A stretch of 64,000 nucleotides of DNA from Alistipes sp. (GTDB taxonomy: Bacteria > Bacteroidota > Bacteroidia > Bacteroidales > Rikenellaceae), in the NCBI GenBank assembly GCA_017421945.1, contig JAFOHD010000088.1:31526-95525 (forward strand), given 5' to 3'. The notes beneath the pieces are model-generated. The model saw only the letters and a program-made list of their open reading frames with translations, did no database searches and had not been told where the DNA came from. Numbering within the stretch: the stretch's first letter is position 1; each line of letters begins with the position of its first letter. Both the position numbers and the translations under genes were made by a program. Positions 33,117 to 44,507 of this stretch are shown here, one piece after another.

Positions 33117-33124
33117 GAAAAAGA

Positions 33125-33232
33125 AAATAACGAGGTTATTTCTGCGTTACGCTTGCCCTTGAAATCCTCATTTACACCGAGTAAACTGCGGTTTCTCGGG
33201 CTACGCAGGCCTTGAAATACCTCTCGTTATTT
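33125..33232 (+). repeat. ~110 bp palindromic intergenic element, copy 2
   Basis: Outer stem aaataacgagg/cctctcgttattt, inner pairs gccc/gggc and tttac/gtaaa. Shares cttgaaatcctca...ctgcggtttctcg with copy 1. Confidence 0.8.
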
Positions 33233-33356: not shown

Positions 33357-34721
33357 TTAGTTAAAATAACGTTCTCCTTTCTCAATGTCAGATCTAGGTT
33401 TCTCAAATACAAAGATATCAGTGATTGGAGTTCCGTAGTGGTAATATGCGCTGAGTGACTTTGTTAAAGTGGAGTGCATCTCTCTAAAGCCGCCTCTCTC
33501 CACTTGTTTCAAGGTTATTGATGCTCCACTTCCATAATCATATTCCCCCACAGGGTTCTGCAATAGTCCTAACTCCTTATCAACGATTGTAAGTTCGCAA
33601 GTAACAATGCCAAACTGCTTTCGTGCAGGATTAAAGTTCACACACAGCATATTGCCATTCTTCAAAACTGGAGGAATTGTGTAGTAGTATGTTGAAATAT
33701 AGTCATAATACTCCTCAGCTTTATAAACCTTAAAGTATTCGACATCCTGTCCTATTACGCAATAATGGTCTCTACCCATGAAGATGGCTCTAGGGTCTGG
33801 AGTCCCTGATTTCCCGCTTATATCTAAGATGACGTTATCAAGGTCTGCAATCAAAGAGTCGTCGTTAGCTTTGCGTCTGAAGTATAAATATTTTCCGTTA
33901 TCACCTTTTTGTATAGTGCGAGTAAGATATTGATCACCATCAGGCTTAATCAAACCTACGTAAGAGTCTAGAAACTCCTCGCCATTCTTGTCTATAAGGT
34001 TGTAACACATTTTGCTATCACTATCCTCGTATTTACTAATGATAGCCTTGTCATTACGGTCAAACATGAACGGATACTCAAATTTACAAGGAATAACAAG
34101 GTTGCCCTCGTAGTCAAGAGCTCCATACATATCAAGTTCTCGGTCCATTACACACAAACGACCTCTGTTGTGGTAAAATCCAGCAAGCTCGTACTTTGAA
34201 TCGCTTACTACAATCTCGCCCTGCTTGTTAATCAAAGCCCAATCGTTACTATAGCCGCCCTTTTGCACTAAAGCAAGGCCCTCATGGAACACAGTAAGCG
34301 GCTCCCAATCGCCGAGTTGGCACAATTCATTGCCACTCTTGTCAATGATATAGTAATATCCACCTTTTGTACAGAATGCTACACCTTCCGAGAATCCACT
34401 TACAGGGGAATATTCTGTATCTGTCAAATCTAAAACGGTTTCCCCTTTTTCATTGATATAGTGCATCTTGACTTGGTTACCACTCCTTACAAGCGCAACT
34501 CCATCAGAGAAGAAATCTGCAAATGAGAACTTGCTGGTAATAGGTTTTTCTCCAGTGATCTGATTTACATATTCGTAGTATGTCTTTTCGTACGATTCCT
34601 CCTTGAGTATTTCAAAAGGCAGCAGCCCATCGTAACATCTCTCTTCCGGTGATAAAGAACCTCCTGAAGAGCATGAGTACAATAAGAAGAGTGTACATGC
34701 AGATATGATAAAGCGTTTCAT
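33357..34721 (-). CDS. WG-repeat (KWG-like) lipoprotein
   Basis: Lipobox LLYSC, repeats F.EG.A.V.....Y..I.K.G (FSDGVALV, FSEGVAF, FHEGLALV, YGALDYEG); AT-rich codon usage. Confidence 0.7.
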   Translation of the reverse strand: MKRFIISACTLFLLYSCSSGGSLSPEERCYDGLLPFEILKEESYEKTYYEYVNQITGEKPITSKFSFADFFSDGVALVRSGNQVKMHYINEKGETVLDLTDTEYSPVSGFSEGVAFCTKGGYYYIIDKSGNELCQLGDWEPLTVFHEGLALVQKGGYSNDWALINKQGEIVVSDSKYELAGFYHNRGRLCVMDRELDMYGALDYEGNLVIPCKFEYPFMFDRNDKAIISKYEDSDSKMCYNLIDKNGEEFLDSYVGLIKPDGDQYLTRTIQKGDNGKYLYFRRKANDDSLIADLDNVILDISGKSGTPDPRAIFMGRDHYCVIGQDVEYFKVYKAEEYYDYISTYYYTIPPVLKNGNMLCVNFNPARKQFGIVTCELTIVDKELGLLQNPVGEYDYGSGASITLKQVERGGFREMHSTLTKSLSAYYHYGTPITDIFVFEKPRSDIEKGERYFN

Positions 34722-34757: not shown

Positions 34758-35399
34758 TTACTTCTTGTAGAAAGTATCTCCTCCATCATCGGTATCATAA
34801 CTTGTACCCCCTTGACCAGTGTAGTAACTCTCTCCGAGTATGCCTTTTTCTTCCGTAACCACATCTCCATTATCCAACTTCCATCTTCTGCGTTTTGAGC
34901 CACCGCTAGGACCACCTAGTATCATAGTAAATACGACCCATAAAACGGCTAAAGCAATGAGAATATAGAATGCAATAATGCCAAGTAGAATAGTGACTCC
35001 TATTACAAATGATATCGGCAAAATAATTATGCAACCACCAAACAAAAATCCGAGAGTAATCTGTATGACGTACCACCACTTTCTACCTTGAATCAAAGGG
35101 AGACGTTTTCTTACATAGAATGTCACAAATAGAATAAGTGGAAGTAAATACGATATGATGGCTATAAGTACACCCACAGGTTGAGAAAATCTTGTATCTG
35201 TAGCTGCAAATATCCCCATTATAATTGCTAATAATAAACTTGGTGCTACAACATTTACCGCTAAATAGATTAAAGAGTTTTTTGCCAATTTTGAGGTGTA
35301 CCCATCATCGAACTTTCGCATAAAATTCTCTTCACACGCATTGATTTTGGCATAGATTTTCTTTGTTAGTTGCCAAAAGAAGTTGAAAAATTTCTTCAT
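34758..35399 (-). CDS. Hypothetical membrane protein (about 4 TMs, Gly/acidic C-terminal tail)
   Basis: 213-aa ORF with hydrophobic segments and AT-rich composition, co-oriented with the WG-repeat gene. Confidence 0.65.
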   Translation of the reverse strand: MKKFFNFFWQLTKKIYAKINACEENFMRKFDDGYTSKLAKNSLIYLAVNVVAPSLLLAIIMGIFAATDTRFSQPVGVLIAIISYLLPLILFVTFYVRKRLPLIQGRKWWYVIQITLGFLFGGCIIILPISFVIGVTILLGIIAFYILIALAVLWVVFTMILGGPSGGSKRRRWKLDNGDVVTEEKGILGESYYTGQGGTSYDTDDGGDTFYKK

Positions 35400-35697
35400 A
35401 ATAATAAGGTTTAGGTTGTCGTTTGCTCCTTACACGACTAATAATAACAGAAAGTGTGGAGCCGATTTCATTTATTCGTTAGAGGCTCTGACAAAACCTT
35501 GACCAAAATAAACGAAGCAATACCCCACACCTGAATAGATATGGGGATGGATGCAAATAATGCACCGACCATAATCTAAACAAGAAATGAGTGTTGTTCG
35601 CTGTCCTTTGGTCTTGGAAAACTGTCAGATTTTCTAACGAGGACTATGAAAACACTTTCAAAAAATATGTCTGCTCAACAAAAAACGATCAAGCAGT
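35400..35697 (-). ncRNA. Candidate structured 5' leader/ncRNA: two hairpins with mutually complementary loops
   Basis: Hairpins at 35590-35656 and 35454-35530 whose loops are complementary in blocks. G-U pairs favour the minus strand. Lies downstream of a TATATTTG box. Confidence 0.55.
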
Positions 35698-35698
35698 A

Positions 35699-35706
35699 CA
35701 AATATA
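35699..35706 (-). promoter_or_regulatory. Bacteroidetes -7 promoter box TATATTTG
   Basis: Consensus TAnnTTTG just downstream of the terminator of the preceding gene. Confidence 0.6.
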
Positions 35707-35757
35707 AGAAAAATATCTTCAAAAAGAACAACACTCTATGAGAAATTACATCAAAAG

Positions 35758-35786
35758 AAAACCCCAAGCGGTAAATGCTTGGGGTT
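35758..35786 (-). terminator. Intrinsic terminator after GtaA-like copy 1
   Basis: Stem aaccccaagc/gcttggggtt, with a U-tract on the minus strand. Confidence 0.8.
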
Positions 35787-35806: not shown

Positions 35807-38278
35807 TTATTTGCCATCGCGGTCGGCGAGCATCTTAATCCAGTAACCACCAACCACTGAACGTGCCTTGAATCCAACGTGAGACTTGTTGTCGGTGTTG
35901 ATCCAGTCGCTCATAGGTACGCGGCTTGTTGATTCGTTGTAGAACTTGTGCAGAGGCTTGATGAACTCCTCGAATGTAGCCTTGTCGGGCGACATTGTAG
36001 CTGTCCATACAATCCAGTCTGACTTGGTGTAACCACGACGACAGTCAAGAGGCAAACCATATTCGTTCTGCTTGGTGAGGTAGTAAGCAACCTCGTCAAG
36101 AGCGATAGATGGGTCGAATACGTCGTAGCCGAGCATCTTGTCCCATACAAGGTTGTACTTCTGGCTCCATGTGTCACGGCCTGTGTCGAAAGTCAGGCGG
36201 TAGTGGTCACCCTCCTGAGCCATCTCCTTCCACTTTGCAGCCATATCCTTGGCGATAGCACCATACTTCTGGGCGATATCCTTCTTGCCCGCCATGTCGG
36301 CCATGTCAGCATATGCAGCAACACCCACGATAGCCTTGACAGCGAGGTTGGCGTTGCGTGCCCAGTGACCTGCGAAGTCATCAGTACAGAGCTGGTTAGC
36401 AGGGTCGCCACCATTCTCCACGAGGTAGTCAGTCCATGTTGTCAGGGCGTCCCAATGCTTCAGGGCGTAGTCGGCATTGCCCTCTGCCTGGCATATAGCA
36501 CCAGTGAGGATGAGCATGTTACCACACTCCTCAACAGGCATGTCGCCACCATAAGTCTGGCCATTTGCCTGTGGGTAAGTACCTACGTCGTGAGCAGCGA
36601 AAGGCTTTGTCCACTTGCCGCTCTCGGTGTAGTAGAATATGAAGTTCAAAAGACCCTTTGCAAGCTCTGGGTTATAGTAAAGGAACATAGGAGCTGATGG
36701 ATAAGTTACATCCACAGTACCGATAGAACCGTTTGAGTTGTTCTCCTTTGAGAGCCATGCCAAATCACCGTTAGGAGTCTCGATGAGCTTGTGGGCTGTG
36801 ATAGCCTGACGATATGCCAATGCGCAAAGCTCGGCATACTCCTTGCCACCTGACTTCGCAGCGTCGGCCATGAGCTTAGCATCGAACTTCTCGCAACGCT
36901 TCATCAGCTTCTCATAGTCGGCTGCCGCCAATGCGAACTGCTGCTGGATAGAGCTGTCGCCCTTGCGGTTCCAGTAAGGACGGATGTTCTCGTTGAAGTA
37001 CTGTATAGAGTACAGGTCATCGTAACCAACCATGATGTAGTTGCTAACCTCTGCGGCACCTACCTTGCCGAGCTTCTTTGAGAGGGCCATCTGTGTACCC
37101 TCACCCTTTGATTCTACCTCGCCATTCTCGGCAAAAGCCTTGCGCAAGCCAACAGGGCAACCCACAGCGTTTGCAGTCTGCTTGTCAGCCGCCATGTAGA
37201 AGTAACCCCAGTCGATGCGGATGTCGTCGCCACGGTGAGCCAATACGCGCTGTGACTCGGTGCCTGACTTAACATAGTTGAACTGCTCGTCAGCCTCAAC
37301 AGTGCTGATGCTCTTCTGTGTAGGCATGTTGCGAGCCCAATCAGCCGAAGCCTCGAAGTAAATCTCAACATCGTGCTCTGCGCCGTCGTTTGATTTAACA
37401 GCGTAAGTAACGTAGTTTACAGGGCGAGATACCAGCTCCAAATCCTCCATAAAGAGTGGAGCAGCGAAGGTAAGAGTCAAATCCACTCCACCGCAGGTGA
37501 AGTCGTAGATGGTGCGTGTAGCCTGCACATCAGCCGATGTTTGCACGGCTGTCTGAGACATGATAATCTCATCGATAGACTGCTTGTAAAGACCGAAATC
37601 GACCAATGCCAGACCTGGGCCATTGTAGCAGTGAGCAGCAAATGTGAGCTTGCCGTCGCTGTCCTTGAGCAACTCCTCGGGTACGGCAGCCAGCACGTTC
37701 TCGCGTGCAGCGTTGCCTGTATCAACAATCTTGGTGCCATTGAGGTAGAGCTCGAAGTTGTCGTCGTGAGAGTACATCACGAAGAGCTTGCTGTTCTTCA
37801 AATCCTCGGGGTTGATTTCAACCTCGCGGCGCACCCAGATGTTCTTTGTGTCCCACACGGTCTTGATGTTTGTCGAGTTCAGACCAAAAGCGGCCTCACC
37901 CTTCTTCCATGACTTGTCGTTGAAGCCGGGCTTTGTCCATGCGTCACCACGTGGAGCATCGAATGTGTATGTTCCCCACCATGGAGCCTCAACCGACATA
38001 GGTGCAAGAGCCGAGATTGTAGGCTCCTCCTGACCCATGAAACGGTAGAGCTGACCATCTACACGAAGAGTACCAACGAATGGGAACTTCTTCTCGGTCC
38101 AGTGCATAACCTGGGCATCGTAGAGGTTGTTTGAAGGTGACCACGCTGATGTGTAGGGGTCGATAGTGATGAGTGGGTACGCAGGAGCGCGCATCTCATT
38201 CTTCACTGGAGCTGGTGAGCTGCAGCTGACAGCCAAAGCCGCCACGGCTGCAACAGCCATAAGTAGTTTTTTCATCAT
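35807..38278 (-). CDS. GtaA ('glutaminase A')-like six-hairpin lipoprotein (DUF4964/DUF5127/DUF4965-type), copy 1
   Basis: Lipobox LAVSC, and motifs RAPAYPLITIDPY, SKEN.SNG.I.TVDV.YP, HDVGTYP, MPVEECGN, QLCTDDFAG, WSQKYNLVWD, KSDW and ARSVVGG. Confidence 0.85.
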   Translation of the reverse strand: MMKKLLMAVAAVAALAVSCSSPAPVKNEMRAPAYPLITIDPYTSAWSPSNNLYDAQVMHWTEKKFPFVGTLRVDGQLYRFMGQEEPTISALAPMSVEAPWWGTYTFDAPRGDAWTKPGFNDKSWKKGEAAFGLNSTNIKTVWDTKNIWVRREVEINPEDLKNSKLFVMYSHDDNFELYLNGTKIVDTGNAARENVLAAVPEELLKDSDGKLTFAAHCYNGPGLALVDFGLYKQSIDEIIMSQTAVQTSADVQATRTIYDFTCGGVDLTLTFAAPLFMEDLELVSRPVNYVTYAVKSNDGAEHDVEIYFEASADWARNMPTQKSISTVEADEQFNYVKSGTESQRVLAHRGDDIRIDWGYFYMAADKQTANAVGCPVGLRKAFAENGEVESKGEGTQMALSKKLGKVGAAEVSNYIMVGYDDLYSIQYFNENIRPYWNRKGDSSIQQQFALAAADYEKLMKRCEKFDAKLMADAAKSGGKEYAELCALAYRQAITAHKLIETPNGDLAWLSKENNSNGSIGTVDVTYPSAPMFLYYNPELAKGLLNFIFYYTESGKWTKPFAAHDVGTYPQANGQTYGGDMPVEECGNMLILTGAICQAEGNADYALKHWDALTTWTDYLVENGGDPANQLCTDDFAGHWARNANLAVKAIVGVAAYADMADMAGKKDIAQKYGAIAKDMAAKWKEMAQEGDHYRLTFDTGRDTWSQKYNLVWDKMLGYDVFDPSIALDEVAYYLTKQNEYGLPLDCRRGYTKSDWIVWTATMSPDKATFEEFIKPLHKFYNESTSRVPMSDWINTDNKSHVGFKARSVVGGYWIKMLADRDGK

Positions 38279-38420
38279 AATTTAATGTATTTAAGTGTTT
38301 GGTTATTCAGTTTAAGCAAAGATAGAAAAATATGTGGAATTATGCGAATGAAAAGGAATAATTATACAAAATTATCATAAGTTTTCTCATCAGTCGTTTC
38401 CTTTGCTACAAACCACAAAC

Positions 38421-38457
38421 AAAAAGGGTTGTCGCAACCCGAAAGTTGGACAACCCC
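38421..38457 (-). terminator. Intrinsic terminator after GtaA-like copy 2
   Basis: Stem gggttgtc/gacaaccc with an adjacent A-run (U-tract on the minus strand). Confidence 0.7.
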
Positions 38458-38479
38458 ATATTATATTAGGTATAACCTG

Positions 38480-40945
38480 TTACTGCAACTCGTCAGCGAG
38501 CATCTTAATCCAGTAACCACCCACAACCGAGCGAGCCTGGAAACCTACGTGTGATGGTGAGTCAGTGCTGTACCAGTCACTCATAGGAGCGCGGCCCTTA
38601 GTCTCGTTGTAGAACTTGTGCAGAGGCTTGATGAACTCCTCGAATGTAGCCTTGTCAGGCGACATTGTAGCTGTCCATACAACCCAGTCAGACTTAGAGT
38701 AAGTCTTGCGGCAGTCAAGAGGCAAACCATATACGTTCTGCTTTGTGAGGTAGTAAGCAATCTCGTCAAGAGCGATAGATGAGTCGAATACGTTGTAACC
38801 GAGCATCTTGTCCCATACGAGGTTGTACTTCTGGCTCCATGTGTCCTTGCCTGTGTCGAAAGTCAGGCGGTAGTGGTCACCCTCCTGAGCCATCTCCTTC
38901 CACTTTGCAGCCATCTCCTTGGCGATGGTGTTGTAACGCTCGGCAACATCAGCCTTACCTGCCATCTTTGCAAGGTCTGCGTATGCAGCAACACCCACGA
39001 TAGCCTTAACAGCGAGGTTGGCGTTGCGTGCCCAGTGACCTGCGAAGTCGTCGGTACAGAGCTGGTTAGCTGGGTCGCCACCATTCTCCACGAGGTAGTC
39101 GGTCCATGTTGTAAGAACATCCCAGTGCTTCAGGGCATAGTCAGCCTTACCCTCCATCTTACAGATAGCACCAGTGAGGATAAGCATGTTACCACACTCC
39201 TCAACAGGCATGTCGCCACCGTAGGTCTGGCCGTTAGCCAATGGGTAAGTACCTACGTCGTGAGCTGCGAAAGGCTTTGTCCACTTGCCACTCTCAGAGT
39301 AGTAGAAGATGAAGTTGATGAGAGCCTTAGCGAACTCTGGGTTATAGTAAAGGAACATAGGAGCTGATGGATAAGTTACATCCACAGTACCGATAGAACC
39401 GTTAGAGTAGTTCTCCTTTGAAAGCCATGCAAGCTCTCCGTTAGGAGTCTCGATGAGCTTGTGAGCAGCAATAGCCTGACGATATGCCAATGCACAAAGC
39501 TCGGCATACTCCTTGCCACCTGACTTCGCAGCGTCGGCCATGAGCTGAGCGTCGAACTTCTCGCAACGCTTCATCAGCTTCTCATAGTCGGCAGCCGCCA
39601 ATGCGAACTGCTGCTGGATAGAGCTGTCGCCCTTGCGGTTCCAGTAAGGACGGATGTTCTCCTTGAAGTACTGGATAGAGTAGATATCGTCATAACCAAC
39701 CATGATGTAGTTGCTAACCTCTGCGGCACCAACCTTGCCAAGCTTTGAAGAGAGTGCCATCTGGTTACCGTTGTTTGTAGAAGCCACCTCGCCGTTTGCA
39801 GCAAATGCCTGACGGAGGTCGATAGCATTACCCACAGCGTTTGCAGTCTGCTTGTCGGCAGCCATGTAGAAGTAACCCCAGTCGATACGAACATCGTCGC
39901 CACGACGACCAAGAATCTTCTGAGCCTCGGTACCGGTCTTAACGTAGTTGAACTGCTCGTCAGCCTCAACTGAGCTGATGCTCTTCTGTGCAGGAGTGTT
40001 CTGTGCCCAGTGTGTGTCAGCCTCGAAGTAAACCTCAACGTCGTGCTCTGCACCGTCGTTTGACTTAACAGCGTAAGTAACGTAGTTTACAGGGCGTGCA
40101 ACCAACTCTGGCTCCTCCAGGAACATAGGAGCAGCGAAAGTAAGAGTCAAATCTACAGGACCGCAAGTGAATGTGTAGATTGTACGTGTAGCCTGCACGT
40201 CAGCCGATGTCTGCACAGCTGTCTGATTCATCACAACTGCGTTTGTAGGCTGCTTGTAGATACCGAAATCCACCAGACCACCACCTGTGCGGTTGTGGCA
40301 GTGAGCAGCGATGGTAAACTTGCCGTTAGCCTTTGCAATAAGCTCGGCAGGAATCTGCTTGTACTGGTTCTCCTTCCATGTGTACTCGGTAGCGATAAGC
40401 TTCTCGCCATTTACGAAGAGCTCGAAGATATCGTCATGAGAGTAGAGGATGAAGAGGTTGTTGTCCTTGATATCAGCAGGATTAACCTCCACAGTGCGGC
40501 GCAACCAGATATCAGATGAACCCCACTCGGTGTTTACATCGTAATCGTGTCTTGTGCCAAATGGAGCTGGAGCCTGCTTCCAACCCTTCTCGTTGAAATC
40601 AGCGTCAGTCCACTTCTTGTTGGGCTTGTCAAAAGTGTAAGATGCAGTCCACACCTGCTCAGAAGCAGCAGGAGCGATAGCTGTCATGATAGCCTCCTCC
40701 TGGCCCATGAAACGATAGAGCTGACCGTCAACACGCAATGTACCCATGAATGGGAACTTCTTGCCTGTCCAGTGTGTTACCTGGTGGTCGTAGAGGTTGT
40801 CAGCGGGTGACCATGCCGATGTGTAAGGGTCGATAGTGATAAGAGGATAAGATGGCGCACGCATCTCATTCTTCACCGGAGCTGGTGAGCTGCAGCTAAC
40901 AGCCAAAGCTGCGAAAGCAACAACTGCCAAAAGTAGTTTTTTCAT
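38480..40945 (-). CDS. GtaA-like six-hairpin lipoprotein, copy 2
   Basis: Same motifs as copy 1. The start MKKLLLAVV at 40945 is chosen by comparison with copy 1. Confidence 0.85.
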   Translation of the reverse strand: MKKLLLAVVAFAALAVSCSSPAPVKNEMRAPSYPLITIDPYTSAWSPADNLYDHQVTHWTGKKFPFMGTLRVDGQLYRFMGQEEAIMTAIAPAASEQVWTASYTFDKPNKKWTDADFNEKGWKQAPAPFGTRHDYDVNTEWGSSDIWLRRTVEVNPADIKDNNLFILYSHDDIFELFVNGEKLIATEYTWKENQYKQIPAELIAKANGKFTIAAHCHNRTGGGLVDFGIYKQPTNAVVMNQTAVQTSADVQATRTIYTFTCGPVDLTLTFAAPMFLEEPELVARPVNYVTYAVKSNDGAEHDVEVYFEADTHWAQNTPAQKSISSVEADEQFNYVKTGTEAQKILGRRGDDVRIDWGYFYMAADKQTANAVGNAIDLRQAFAANGEVASTNNGNQMALSSKLGKVGAAEVSNYIMVGYDDIYSIQYFKENIRPYWNRKGDSSIQQQFALAAADYEKLMKRCEKFDAQLMADAAKSGGKEYAELCALAYRQAIAAHKLIETPNGELAWLSKENYSNGSIGTVDVTYPSAPMFLYYNPEFAKALINFIFYYSESGKWTKPFAAHDVGTYPLANGQTYGGDMPVEECGNMLILTGAICKMEGKADYALKHWDVLTTWTDYLVENGGDPANQLCTDDFAGHWARNANLAVKAIVGVAAYADLAKMAGKADVAERYNTIAKEMAAKWKEMAQEGDHYRLTFDTGKDTWSQKYNLVWDKMLGYNVFDSSIALDEIAYYLTKQNVYGLPLDCRKTYSKSDWVVWTATMSPDKATFEEFIKPLHKFYNETKGRAPMSDWYSTDSPSHVGFQARSVVGGYWIKMLADELQ

Positions 40946-41105
40946 AATAAATTTGTATTTGTTTAATAATGTGTTAATTCCAACGGGCAAATATAGCCAT
41001 AATAATTGGTATTTTCTCTATTTTTTCACCAAATTCTTCATATTCAGATGAATGTTTGGTGCGAGTATGAAATTTTCAAGAAGAGTGTTCCCTGGAACGT
41101 GGAAT

Positions 41106-41143
41106 AAAAAAGTTGCAACCGAATATGGTTTTTCGGTTGCAAC
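41106..41143 (-). terminator. Intrinsic terminator after the MBL gene
   Basis: Stem gttgcaaccgaa/ttcggttgcaac with an adjacent A-run. Confidence 0.8.
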
Positions 41144-41166
41144 ATAACAACTATTTCATGCTCCGG

Positions 41167-42033
41167 TTACTCAATCTTCACAAGTCCATCGCAAGATACG
41201 TAATGCTCCTTGATGCCCAGCTCCTGCATCCAGCCACGCACGATGACCGACTCATACTGTCCCGTATTAAAGCCCTTGCCCGTGTCGTTGTTGTAGAGCC
41301 ACGATGGAGTTGGCCATAGTGCAGCACGGAACTTCACCTTCTCGTATAAGTTCTTCTTCACAGCCCAGTTGCCATGGTGCGCTAGTTGCAGGTAGTCGCA
41401 CTCAAGGTCGGCGGCATACTCCGATGCGAGCAGTTTGTCACCACCCGCCACCTCCAGGTCGCCGAGGAAGATTACCGATTTGTGCCTGTCCCACATCTTT
41501 ATCACCATGCTCGAATTGTTATAGACGCTGCTGGTGATTTCAGGGTTCTTCTCTGTCAGAATCTTGAACTTCACGCCATCAATCTCAAACTCGTCACCAC
41601 GATGGCAATCAATGACTTCCGTGTCTTTTGCGTTGTCCAGCAGAGTGTAGAATTCACGATAGTAGGCAGCCCACCTTGCACCTTCGGAGTCAAGCATCTT
41701 GTCGGTGAAGCGTGAATGGTAAATCTTCTCAATCGTCACTCCGTTAGGTTTTTCAAGCAACTCCTTCAGCGCCCCCATGTGGTCGTCGTGAGGGTGTGAT
41801 ACAAACCACGCATCAACCTTGCCGCCCAGGGCAGCAATGAATCCGCACAGAAAAGATTTCTCATCCTTGCAGCCACCATCCATGACTATGATTTTGCCAT
41901 TGTGGGTGCGAATCACATAACTGTTGCCAATGGTGTTTACTTGCGAGGGCAGTTGCCACAGGGTGTAGGTTCTCTTCGCCTCGCAGCATAAGGTAATGCA
42001 CAGTGCAACGCACAGCAGTATAATACGTTTCAT
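41167..42033 (-). CDS. Secreted MBL-fold hydrolase (ComEC/Rec2-like subgroup)
   Basis: Signal peptide, and motifs MDGG, SHPHDDHMG, NNSSMV, FLGD and QLAHHG. Confidence 0.78.
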   Translation of the reverse strand: MKRIILLCVALCITLCCEAKRTYTLWQLPSQVNTIGNSYVIRTHNGKIIVMDGGCKDEKSFLCGFIAALGGKVDAWFVSHPHDDHMGALKELLEKPNGVTIEKIYHSRFTDKMLDSEGARWAAYYREFYTLLDNAKDTEVIDCHRGDEFEIDGVKFKILTEKNPEITSSVYNNSSMVIKMWDRHKSVIFLGDLEVAGGDKLLASEYAADLECDYLQLAHHGNWAVKKNLYEKVKFRAALWPTPSWLYNNDTGKGFNTGQYESVIVRGWMQELGIKEHYVSCDGLVKIE

Positions 42034-42035
42034 AA

Positions 42036-44507
42036 TTATTTAGTTTTTTTGTCCTTAAGCATTTTAATCCAGTAACCTCCCACCACCGAGCGGGCCTGCA
42101 ACCAGCCTGTGCGGTGTTTGAGAGAGTTTGTATGGTAGAGGTCAGGCATTGGGGCACGACCATCGGTGTTGTGGTAGAAGTCATACATTGGAGTGATAAA
42201 CTTCTCAAACGTAGCCTTGTCTGAAGATAGGGTAGCCGACCACATAAGCCAGTCACTCTTGGTCACGTAGCTGCGGAAGTCGAGCGAAAGACCATACTTG
42301 TTGAACTTCGAGAGGTAGTATGTCACCTCGGCGTTGGCTATATCCTTGTCAAAGACGTTGAGTGCGAGAATCTCGTCCCACACCAGGTTGTACTTCTGGC
42401 TCCATGTGTCCTGACCCTTGTCAAATGTGAGGCGGTAGTGGTCGCCCTCGCGAGCCATCAGCTTCCATGTGGCGGCCATCTCCTTTGCTTTTGCCGTGAA
42501 CTGCTCGGCGACATCCTCCTTGCCGGCCATTCGTGCCATGTCGGCATAGGCAGCCACGCCTATGATTGCCTTTATCGAGAGGTTTGTGTTGCGAGCCAGA
42601 TGACCCATGAAGTCGTCAGTACAGAGTTGGTTGCGTGGGTCCTGACCATTCTCAACAAGGTAGTTGGCCCATGTAGTGAGCACCTCCCAATGCTTCAAGG
42701 CATAATCGGCATTTCCATCTGCCTGACATATGGCGTCGGTCATGATGAGCATGTTGCCCGACTCCTCGATTGGCATGCCCTCGCCGCCATAGTCCTCGCC
42801 GCGCACGTGTGGGTAGCGACCTGCGTCGTGTGCTGCATAGGGCTTGTCCCATCTCTCGCTCTCGCACAACTCAAATATAAAGTTCAGGAGTCCCTTTGCG
42901 AGGTCGGGATTGTAGTAGATGTATAGTGGGAACGATGGGAAGGTCACATCCACAGTACCCAGGCATCCGTTTGAGAAATTCTCCTTTGAAATCCACGCCA
43001 GCTCGCCGCTTGGATTCTCAATAAGCTTGTGGGCTGCAATTGATTGGCGGTAAGCCAGGGCGCACAACTCGGCATACTCCTTGCCTCCTGCTTCGCGGGC
43101 GTCGGCCATAAGCTGGGCGTCAAACTTCTCGCACTTTTTCACAAGTGACTTATACTCGTCGGCAGCCGCAGCAAACTGCTTTTCAATGGAACTGTCTCCG
43201 TTGCGGTTCCAATATGGGCGCACCTGCTCGCCGTAGTAAAGAATGGAGTACAGGTCGTCATAACCCACCATGATAAAGTCGCTCACGGGCTTTGTGCCCA
43301 CCTTGCCCAAATGTGAGGCGATAGCCAAGTAATCACCCTCGCAAGAGGAGATTGAGCCTCTCTCCACAAACTCATATCGCATATCAAATGGGTTGCCTTT
43401 GGCGGTGGAGTATCTGGTCTTGTCGCCTGCAAGGTAGAAATATCCCCAGTCAATGCGCACATCATCGCCGAACTTTTGCAGTATGGGCTGCTCCACGGTC
43501 CCCGTCTTGGCATAGACGAAACGCTCGTCGGCGACCACCTCGCTAATGCTTTTCTGTGAGTTGGCGTGGCGTGCCCATTGAGGGCCGGCCTCGAAGTATA
43601 TCTCCACATCGTGCTCAGTACCGTCGTTTGATGTTACCTCATAGGTTACGTAGTTCACAGGACGTGACACAAGGTCGAGGTTGTCAAGCAGCAGGGGAGC
43701 CATGAATGTGAGTCTTAGGTCAATCTCGCCGCATGTGAATGTATATATTGTACGTGTAGCCTGAACGTCGGCAGATGTCTGCTGTGCGGAGGTTGTAAGC
43801 TTCATGGCGGCATTGTCGGAGCGGTAGAGACCGAAGTCCACCAGTGCGCCGCCGAGTGTGTTCTGGCAGTGTGCCGCTATGGTGAGTGTATTGCCCCACT
43901 TGGCAATCTGCTCGCGAGTAATCTCCACGGTCTGGTTCTCCTTCCACGAGTTGTCGGTCGCAATGATTCTGTCACCATTGATGTATAGCTCGAAGATGTC
44001 GTCATGCGAGTAGTTGAGCATATACTTGTCTGCCTGTAAATCCTTGGCCGACAGCTCCACAGTGCGACGCAGCCATATGTCGGGAGTCCTCCACTGGGTT
44101 TTCAGGTCGGTGTAGTTCATGCCAAAGGGAGCAAACGACTTTTCCCATCCTTTGTCATTGTAATTCTGGGCCGTCCAATCGCCAGTAGGCTTGTCGAAGG
44201 TGTAGGTCGCTTCCCACGACTGCTCATGCCCCATGGGAGCAATGGGGATAAGCAGAGCCTGCTCCACACCCATGAAGCGGTAGAGTTCTCCATCCACACG
44301 TAGCACCCCCACAAACGGAAAATCTTTCTCGGTCCAGTGCATGATTTGACGGTCGTAGAGGTTGTCGGCTCCCGACCACGCCGAGGTATAGGGGTCGATG
44401 GTGATAAGCGGATATGCCGGCGCACGCAGTTCGTTTCTGATATGCTCGGGTGTCCCACATCCCACCATGGTCATAAGCGCCATAACGGCAAGCATCAATC
44501 GTTTCAT
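42036..44507 (-). CDS. GtaA-like six-hairpin lipoprotein, copy 3 (divergent)
   Basis: Lipobox MVGC, and motifs RAPAYPLITIDPY, SKENFSNGCLGTVDV, MPIEESGN, LCTDDFMG and WSQKYNLVWD. Confidence 0.85.
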   Translation of the reverse strand: MKRLMLAVMALMTMVGCGTPEHIRNELRAPAYPLITIDPYTSAWSGADNLYDRQIMHWTEKDFPFVGVLRVDGELYRFMGVEQALLIPIAPMGHEQSWEATYTFDKPTGDWTAQNYNDKGWEKSFAPFGMNYTDLKTQWRTPDIWLRRTVELSAKDLQADKYMLNYSHDDIFELYINGDRIIATDNSWKENQTVEITREQIAKWGNTLTIAAHCQNTLGGALVDFGLYRSDNAAMKLTTSAQQTSADVQATRTIYTFTCGEIDLRLTFMAPLLLDNLDLVSRPVNYVTYEVTSNDGTEHDVEIYFEAGPQWARHANSQKSISEVVADERFVYAKTGTVEQPILQKFGDDVRIDWGYFYLAGDKTRYSTAKGNPFDMRYEFVERGSISSCEGDYLAIASHLGKVGTKPVSDFIMVGYDDLYSILYYGEQVRPYWNRNGDSSIEKQFAAAADEYKSLVKKCEKFDAQLMADAREAGGKEYAELCALAYRQSIAAHKLIENPSGELAWISKENFSNGCLGTVDVTFPSFPLYIYYNPDLAKGLLNFIFELCESERWDKPYAAHDAGRYPHVRGEDYGGEGMPIEESGNMLIMTDAICQADGNADYALKHWEVLTTWANYLVENGQDPRNQLCTDDFMGHLARNTNLSIKAIIGVAAYADMARMAGKEDVAEQFTAKAKEMAATWKLMAREGDHYRLTFDKGQDTWSQKYNLVWDEILALNVFDKDIANAEVTYYLSKFNKYGLSLDFRSYVTKSDWLMWSATLSSDKATFEKFITPMYDFYHNTDGRAPMPDLYHTNSLKHRTGWLQARSVVGGYWIKMLKDKKTK

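Follow-up and report, generated by a model that had tools for sequence, protein, structure and literature searches.

A leader RNA with cross-paired hairpins and a switching base in Alistipes, related to the hth-associated ncRNA of flavobacteria: a candidate transcription attenuator

A 307-nt leader on the minus strand (35400-35706) of the window, which is the whole stretch of 64,000 nt of Alistipes sp. DNA that was analyzed, was found to be a form of an RNA already reported but uncharacterized, the hth-associated ncRNA of flavobacterial dCas12f loci. We hold, with moderate confidence, that this element is a cis-acting transcription attenuator for the accessory genes behind it. Comparison of its homologues established a promoter-leader-gene layout, cross-pairing between two hairpins, hairpin stems on nucleotides that do not overlap the cross-pairs, mutually exclusive partners for one strand (b), and a U-rich tract directly after one of those partners (b'). 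An earlier note had proposed a cis-regulatory leader with an A/B conformational switch, and the conserved exclusive pairings described below supported that proposal. All features of the leader and its flanks are given on the minus strand.

Promoter, strand and folding of the leader

The motifs on which the earlier reading was built lay where they had been placed: a promoter box at 35699-35706, an ATG at 35399, hairpin A at 35590-35659 and hairpin B at 35454-35530. The box (TATATTTG) is a -7 element of the Bacteroidota type, and its pattern TAnnTTTG stood upstream of the element in 127 of 162 representatives; the controls had it in 21 of 162 on the reverse strand and in 8 of 122 far upstream. 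An imperfect inverted repeat across the -33 region (35729-35749) was kept in long-form copies, with a consensus of about GCAATAYCC..GAGTGTTG; it has a variable spacer, G-T pairs and a right arm that could also pair with strand a'. Outside the element, a terminator scan placed the intrinsic terminator of the upstream glutaminase-like gene at 35760-35786. Between the box and strand a, folding gave a variable 5' hairpin (35671-35696).

The leader folded at -93.1 kcal/mol (z = -6.25), with 0 of 100 shuffles as good. Two hairpins had been proposed, and their stem and loop sequences were indeed present, but the nested minimum-energy fold was one long rod in which the supposed loop blocks were paired; forcing both inner stems of hairpins A and B gave -80.9 rather than -93.1 kcal/mol, a cost of 12 kcal/mol. 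When growing prefixes of the window copy were folded, hairpin A appeared first and the rod appeared once the kissing partner had been transcribed. At block-1 positions, 91 G-U pairs were counted against 29 A-C pairs, which favored the coding (minus) strand as the RNA, as had been proposed. Frpo is the model for promoters that work as folded single-stranded DNA; a candidate of this kind was rejected, as the G-U bias points to the coding strand and not to the template.

No uniform leader peptide was found among the start codons in the leader. A scan against Rfam 15 at the gathering threshold matched nothing over the window element, nor at 46 homologue loci (18 + 20 + 8 loci). The description of the RNA as undescribed thus held in that it belongs to no Rfam family, but not for its flavobacterial homologues, which correspond to the hth-associated ncRNA of PMC13472631.

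Cross-pairing between the hairpins

Strand a (GAAAGTGT, 35652-35659) pairs either with a' at the base of hairpin A or with b' in a stem that closes the rod. The 5' strand of the hairpin A stem, GTCCT (35640-35644), pairs with 35603-35607 and showed compensatory changes. It is followed by block 1, CGTTAG (35634-35639), which cross-pairs with 35477-35482; by inner hairpin A (35618-35633), in which AAAA and TTTT enclose a 7-nt kissing loop, TCTGACA (35623-35629); and by block 4, GACCAA (35608-35613), which cross-pairs with 35501-35506. The 3' strand of the stem, AGGAC, and strand a' (AACACTCAT) complete this half at 35587-35607. Hairpin C (35531-35583) is an insertion of the long forms, and its 3' strand (CCCCATATCT, here c3) can alternatively pair with strand b. 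The small ggtgca/tgcatcc hairpin described earlier was present, but as the tip of a larger third hairpin. Strand b (GTGTGGGG, 35523-35530) is the switching strand and is homologous to the flavobacterial dCas12f guide target. In hairpin B, the 5' strand of the stem (TCGTTTAT) and block 4' TTGGTC occupy 35501-35515, inner hairpin B (35483-35500) consists of AAGG, the kissing partner TGTCAGA (35487-35493) and GCCT, and block 1' CTAACG runs into the 3' strand of the stem at 35468-35482.

Selected block-wise pairing between the loops, the central claim of the earlier note, was borne out by covariation. Among 31 aligned copies, two-sided changes affected 6 of 6 pairs of block 1, 4 of 7 pairs of the central 7-bp block and 5 of 5 pairs of block 4. 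When structure between and within the hairpins was scored together, 95.6% of cells were paired and 22 of 53 pairs had changed on both sides; none of 500 shuffles scored as high over the whole structure, and no slid register came near. For a wider set, 271 profile matches were reduced to 209 unique copies that were parsed, with 20 failures, and then to 162 representatives. Over 160 representatives, block 1 averaged 8.1 bp against 2.4 for mismatched sequences, with block 1 itself used by the parser in choosing the anchor and the kiss fixed in pattern-derived copies; block 4 averaged 8.4 bp against 2.9 for strands taken from different copies. A short cc/gg block had also been listed, and this one did not survive: loop A reads CA in most copies, and the GG of loop B is matched by CC inside loop B.

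The spacers between the blocks had been taken as non-pairing. They do separate the blocks, but each is complementary inside its own hairpin, with 99.2% (AAAA/TTTT) and 97.5% (AAGG/GCCT) of cells paired and the sequences almost invariant. In 147 representatives with both blocks of at least 5 bp (13 were dropped), the within-hairpin stems extended beyond the cross-pairs by 3.7 and 5.2 bp, compared with 2.5 and 3.5 bp in the respective controls. These stems begin where the cross-pairs end, the two overlapping by -1 to 1 nt in most copies. As the hairpin stems lie on nucleotides free of cross-pairs, the predicted fold alternates between helices that join the two hairpins and helices within each of them, and the order along the element is between, within, between, within, kiss. 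The helical period of 11 nt pointed out earlier was kept in the homologues: block 1 plus the inner A helix measured 11 nt in 62 of the 147 and 10-12 nt in 127.

The within-hairpin helices of 29 flavobacterial copies were 95.3% paired with 12 two-sided cells, a result matched by 0 of 500 shuffles, and 11 of the 12 lay in the A stem. The B stem and both inner helices had no two-sided change in either the 31 long-form or the 29 flavobacterial copies, so that good support for the crossovers is confined to the A stem. The mutual information of the second strand with the third was left out as circular, the alignment having been built on that helix.

The predicted fold is thus paranemic-crossover-like, with helices alternating at about one turn and the 7-bp kiss as a cap. 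As in a paranemic crossover, two internal loops pair through both of their strands, and the flanking within-hairpin helices use non-overlapping nucleotides with a period of about one turn. If this prediction is right, all of the helices would coexist side by side in three dimensions. The earlier note had offered a tertiary loop-loop structure and a conformational switch as alternatives; the two look compatible, as a constant cross-paired core set over a switching base.

The switching base and evidence for attenuation

At the base of the element, strand b (35523-35530) has mutually exclusive partners: b' before the U-tract, a', or, in long forms, c3. Strand b' (GCTCCACAC, 35454-35462) is predicted to form a terminator stem with b, and its GCTCC can also pair with a downstream loop. 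The U-rich tract follows directly (TTTCTGTTATTATT, 35440-35453); in the window copy it is interrupted and weaker than in most copies. The b' core was found in 135 of 147 representatives, and 118 of these 135 had at least six T in the 10 nt after it.

Among the 31 long-form copies, the b/b' duplex reached -5 kcal/mol or below in all 31 (mean -13.5), a mean hardly above that of the cross-sequence control (-13.5 vs -13.3), and the rival local hairpin of c3 with b reached the same level in 30. In the 29 flavobacterial copies, a'/b was paired in 98.5% and b/b' in 99.0% of cells, with two two-sided changes each; covariation was modest for a'/b (2 of 500 shuffles as high) and not significant for b/b' (34-51 of 500). 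Terminator and antiterminator pairings that exclude each other were thus conserved, as in an attenuator.

When the 3' half was folded alone, it closed b/b' in 95 of 101 copies. Full-length nested folds of the 101 gave the rod in 73, the terminator in 11 and another structure in 17, and at the decision point the 31 long-form copies had b mainly with a' in 21, with c3 in 8 and with b' in only 2. Nested folding models therefore favor read-through, and such models can represent neither crossovers nor kinetics. A terminator scan called no local terminator hairpin at the U-tract, because the b/b' stem closes over about 70 nt.

Proposed mechanism

The attenuator that we propose would work as follows. 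Hairpin A would fold first during transcription, and synthesis of the 3' half would then let the cross-pairs and the 7-bp kiss lock the hairpins side by side in a paranemic-crossover-like bundle. The bundle would hold four similar strands (a, a', b and b') at a junction able to migrate. Pairing of b with b' would form the terminator and release a short RNA, and capture of b by either a' or c3 would let the polymerase read on. In the Bacteroidales islet subclass, read-through would free b' to pair with a loop near the start codon. Our likeliest guess for the trigger would be a protein, a small molecule or a pause of the polymerase that acts on the invariant core surrounding the kiss. In flavobacteria, a dCas12f-sigmaE start inside the element may bypass the block. 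Termination, migration of the junction and this bypass are the steps that we infer from the pairings and positions.

A broader picture is possible, although we regard it as doubtful when taken as a whole. The element might be a natural PX tile spread through the phylum, in which four homologous strands meet at a Holliday-like mobile junction and allow a toehold-free flip between terminator and antiterminator. Such a tile would gate acquired genes and the master regulators of conjugative elements, and dCas12f-sigmaE would target it because an internal start removes the 5' arm of the terminator.

Relationship to the hth-associated ncRNA and dCas12f-sigmaE

Hoffmann et al. (Nature 2026; PMC13472631) reported an abundant, discrete ncRNA between hth and rpoE in Flagellimonas, found it beside other hth genes too, and assigned it no function. 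In their account, rpoE and dcas12f behind the ncRNA are expressed at a low level, the 5' end of the ncRNA overlaps the dCas12f guide seed, and guide-driven transcription starts 46 bp past the TAM (PMC13472631). The ncRNA was dispensable for binding and activation in their E. coli assays, and a role in trans, of the negative-regulator or protein-sponge type, was hypothesized (PMC13472631). The available text of PMC13472631 describes no crossover fold, attenuation model or copies outside dCas12f genomes.

Homologues of the element were found between hth and rpoE at two loci (L173 and L235), whose dCas12f proteins correspond to rows 418651 and 168319 of Table S1 of PMC13472631, both flagged there as ncRNA-associated; the dCas12f identity was also obtained through PDB 9N9C (E 3e-173). 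The long-form model matched the L173 and L235 copies at E 1.4e-7 and 8.8e-8, and 33 of 36 tested loci, preselected by the core pattern, at E <= 6.4e-5. The reverse model, built on the hth type, found the window element weakly, as two split halves (E 0.059 and 0.13), and another copy in the same genome at E 1.1e-4. The published guide of Chryseobacterium gleum starts with the strand-b sequence, and this start, as an 11-mer, occurred in 23 of 29 hth-type copies; the homologous strand of the window differs (GGTGTGGGG). By position, by sequence and structure homology, and by the match to the guide seed, the element is a relative of the hth-associated ncRNA. The window copy differs in being a long form, whose hairpin C is about 55 nt longer, and in having no divergent hth, its upstream gene being the co-oriented glutaminase-like gene.

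With the TAM placed one base before the guide match, so that an error of a few bases is possible, TAM+46 lay between b and b', 5-9 nt inside the last strand, in 28 of 29 hth-type copies. A guide-driven transcript would therefore begin past b, and without b no terminator would be possible. The position of this start, which is independent of folding, would fit attenuation. A search of the genome of the window, and of 61 genomes of the genus with one query, found no dCas12f-type sigmaE; the window copy must therefore be controlled in another way. At L235:4653-5093, 3' of dcas12f, tandem dCas12f guide-scaffold repeats were seen, two of which fit the motif and a third of which is visible as a variant.

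The genome of the window does contain a 486-aa Cas12f/TnpB-like gene with a zinc finger (L291:3038-4960; G000 contig C2). About 200 nt of non-coding DNA separate this gene from a mini CRISPR-like array behind it, with repeats of about 36 nt and four spacers; cas1 and cas2 are absent from the 5.3-kb contig. As a dCas12f partner this gene was rejected, since its RuvC-type acidic motifs are apparently intact by inspection. Two of the four spacers were parsed and had 3 and 0 ten-mer matches in the 147 elements.

The abundant discrete RNA in Flagellimonas (PMC13472631) raises the alternative that the leader is the precursor of a trans-acting small RNA, made of the 3' half or of the whole fold. The ability of the 3' half to fold by itself, together with a highly ordered fold and an invariant core suited to protein binding, would agree with such an RNA. 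A role in cis is better fitted by the close position of sense copies before unrelated genes, with a sense ORF no more than 170 nt after the element in 107 of 130 representatives with enough sequence, and by the presence of up to 12 matches per genome; the RNA was also dispensable in the E. coli assays (PMC13472631). We consider a trans-acting RNA unlikely. For its part, the attenuator reading, which starts from an intact leader, has to explain the apparent strand-b start of the RNA in PMC13472631 by processing or decay of the 5' half.

Possible control downstream of the element

The conserved leader is followed by a 3' hairpin (35418-35438) with a GGAGC loop (35425-35429), with which b' is predicted to form a pseudoknot in the islet subclass of Bacteroidales. 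Many Bacteroidales copies have a GGAG-type loop, 20-45 nt ahead of the start codon, to which b' is complementary. At least six Watson-Crick pairs were possible in 18% of 107 copies, against 3% across sequences and 1% in shuffled sequences.

Two other forms of control in cis were weighed. The HK022 put RNA is a promoter-proximal, two-hairpin cis RNA with a U-rich site after it, like the element, but it is much shorter and has no loop-loop pairing. In a processive antiterminator of this type, the bundle would bind the polymerase and suppress the U-rich pause so that AT-rich operons are read. The promoter-proximal position, the U-tract that follows, a cargo GC content below that of core genes, and the preference of the nested model for read-through all agree with this; it leaves unexplained the conserved b/b' stem, the abundant discrete RNA, the poorly expressed downstream genes and the internal guide-driven start, and many islets have only one to four genes. 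It appeared to us somewhat less probable than the trans-acting RNA. The second form is control of translation or mRNA stability, in which the fold would block nucleases and the start-codon pseudoknot would set ribosome access. The excess of b' complementarity to the GGAG-type loop speaks for it, but the flavobacterial subclass showed no such pseudoknot, and its first long ORF often lies 250-600 nt from the element; we regard this explanation as improbable.

Cargo genes and genomic context

Cargo gene 1 (34758-35399, starting with the ATG at 35399) encodes a 213-aa membrane protein with no family above the cut-off, and cargo gene 2 (33357-34721) a 454-aa WG-repeat protein with a lipoprotein-like N terminus. 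Their GC contents, 36.6% and 40.4%, compare with 49.7% for the genome, and no covariance-model match was found between the cargo genes. In a close relative (G355; 90% identical in pgi), the element and cargo unit were absent between pgi and the glutaminase gene, where the gap is 289 bp as compared with about 2.7 kb in the window; this empty site is too diverged to define the junctions of the islet. At 23 congeneric loci, the element was mostly followed by one to four genes of lower GC in its own orientation, the first of which nearly always differed, so that the catalog of downstream genes agreed with the variable cargo suggested earlier.

Of 96 upstream genes collected, 77 were scanned: 13 encoded XRE-type HTH proteins, 7 excisionase-type HTH proteins, 8 integrase-family proteins, 4 restriction or defense proteins, 3 RteB/RteC and 1 a relaxase, with 8 others and 33 without a match. 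Two Fibrobacter records (L176 and L183) had the element ahead of DNA-methylase or restriction-type genes, and L233 is a third Fibrobacter record with the element. A tandem pair of elements stood ahead of one gene at L050:1280-1658.

Two features of the surrounding window were also recorded. A long imperfect palindrome (33118-33232) lies directly after the pgi stop codon; it had high summed depth and loose ends in the runs, like a dispersed repeat, and G355 has another palindrome in its place. Three near-tandem glutaminase-A-like paralogues of 823, 836 and 823 aa lie at 35807-44507, with a 288-aa ORF before the third, and the array is similar in G355.

A site for recombination or recognition of cassettes had been suggested by the earlier note, and the layout did not bear this out. 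Integron attC-like cassettes have a site at the 3' end of each gene and a cognate integrase, whereas we found one element at the 5' end of islets of one to four genes; pairwise blastn of oriented flanks found no 3' element shared among the islets, and the islets at the 23 congeneric loci carried no dedicated recombinase. A mobilization signal (attC-like or a retro-transposition handle) that moves promoter-plus-cargo cassettes would account for the shorter gap in G355, for the differing cargo and for the integrase-family genes upstream, but in view of the missing shared 3' element, of four contig sets without an excision joint across the islet, and of copies at fixed regulatory positions before rteC and rpoE, it is the least probable explanation.

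Distribution and significance

The genome of the window had four copies of the element by BLAST and six by profile searches, one of them cut at a contig end; the promoter type and the homologues point to a host within Bacteroidales. Of 36 congeneric genomes, 34 matched the element, some of them as many as 12 times, and the homologue search that had been suggested thus recovered copies within the genus and across Bacteroidota. A covariance model built on 31 long-form copies had matches in at least 25 of 150 other genomes of the order and at least 4 of 150 genomes of the phylum, both lower bounds from 15 scored candidates per genome. The core pattern was found at 52 viral-contig loci and in at least 120 GTDB rows. 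Among the matches listed, 80 rows were titled, 70 of them Bacteroidota by title; the 10 others comprised 4 Fibrobacter, 2 Lentisphaerae, 1 Kiritimatiellae, 1 Melioribacteraceae and 2 that may be misbinned. Most of the distant copies were short forms of about 160 nt. Phage and plasmid collections had one record each with the element.

Our findings offer a testable structure and function for the RNA left unexplained in PMC13472631, and an explanation for the choice of a single conserved target by native dCas12f guides. They extend the range of this RNA beyond the dCas12f loci of flavobacteria to Bacteroidota at large, to the CTnDOT-type rteC region, and to a few Fibrobacter and Lentisphaerae/Kiritimatiellae records. 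Given this wide range, which includes the rteC region, the element may be a missing layer of control in horizontal gene transfer in the gut. If confirmed, a natural crossover fold would be new and of interest to RNA structural biology and RNA nanotechnology.

Comparison with known systems

At one locus (L178), a sensor kinase, an RteB-like regulator, a promoter, the element and a RibD_C-type ORF were followed by an ORF that we take to be RteC-like, judging by its sequence and by the gene order; a Pfam RteC match was obtained only for a neighbor gene in L221. The gene order at L178 is that of the CTnDOT regulatory region as reviewed in PMC3809561, and the available text of that review mentions no structured leader before rteC. 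At another locus, the RteR sRNA lies just 3' of the RibD_C-type gene behind the element (L126:816-889).

In a mostly open-access literature, no natural paranemic RNA was found, nor any description of this leader besides PMC13472631. Term look-up in PMC5737381, PMC11109978, PMC7366714, PMC8457670 and bioRxiv 10.64898/2026.10.21.760802 returned nothing relevant, and in those supplements of PMC8040213 that can be searched none of six core motifs was present.

For the fold itself, the connectivity described for PX RNA and single-stranded RNA origami (PMC10376919) equals that predicted for the element. Those molecules are engineered, whereas the fold of the element is derived from covariation alone, and the element differs further in its linkers of 1-5 nt on one strand and in its sequence-invariant core. 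For the mechanism, the nearest analogue is the zipper-type attenuator cATT of pLS20 in Bacillus subtilis (PMC13401043), to which we liken the element by description. Both are leaders of mobile or accessory genes, cATT being that of a mobile-element operon, and in both a long imperfect stem acts, or in the element would act, as the antiterminator when extended, with an upstream hairpin plus terminator as the alternative (PMC13401043). The terminator of cATT is a local hairpin, whereas the predicted stem of the element closes over about 70 nt, and the long stem of the element, unlike that of cATT, contains internal cross-pairing and is found in a different phylum.
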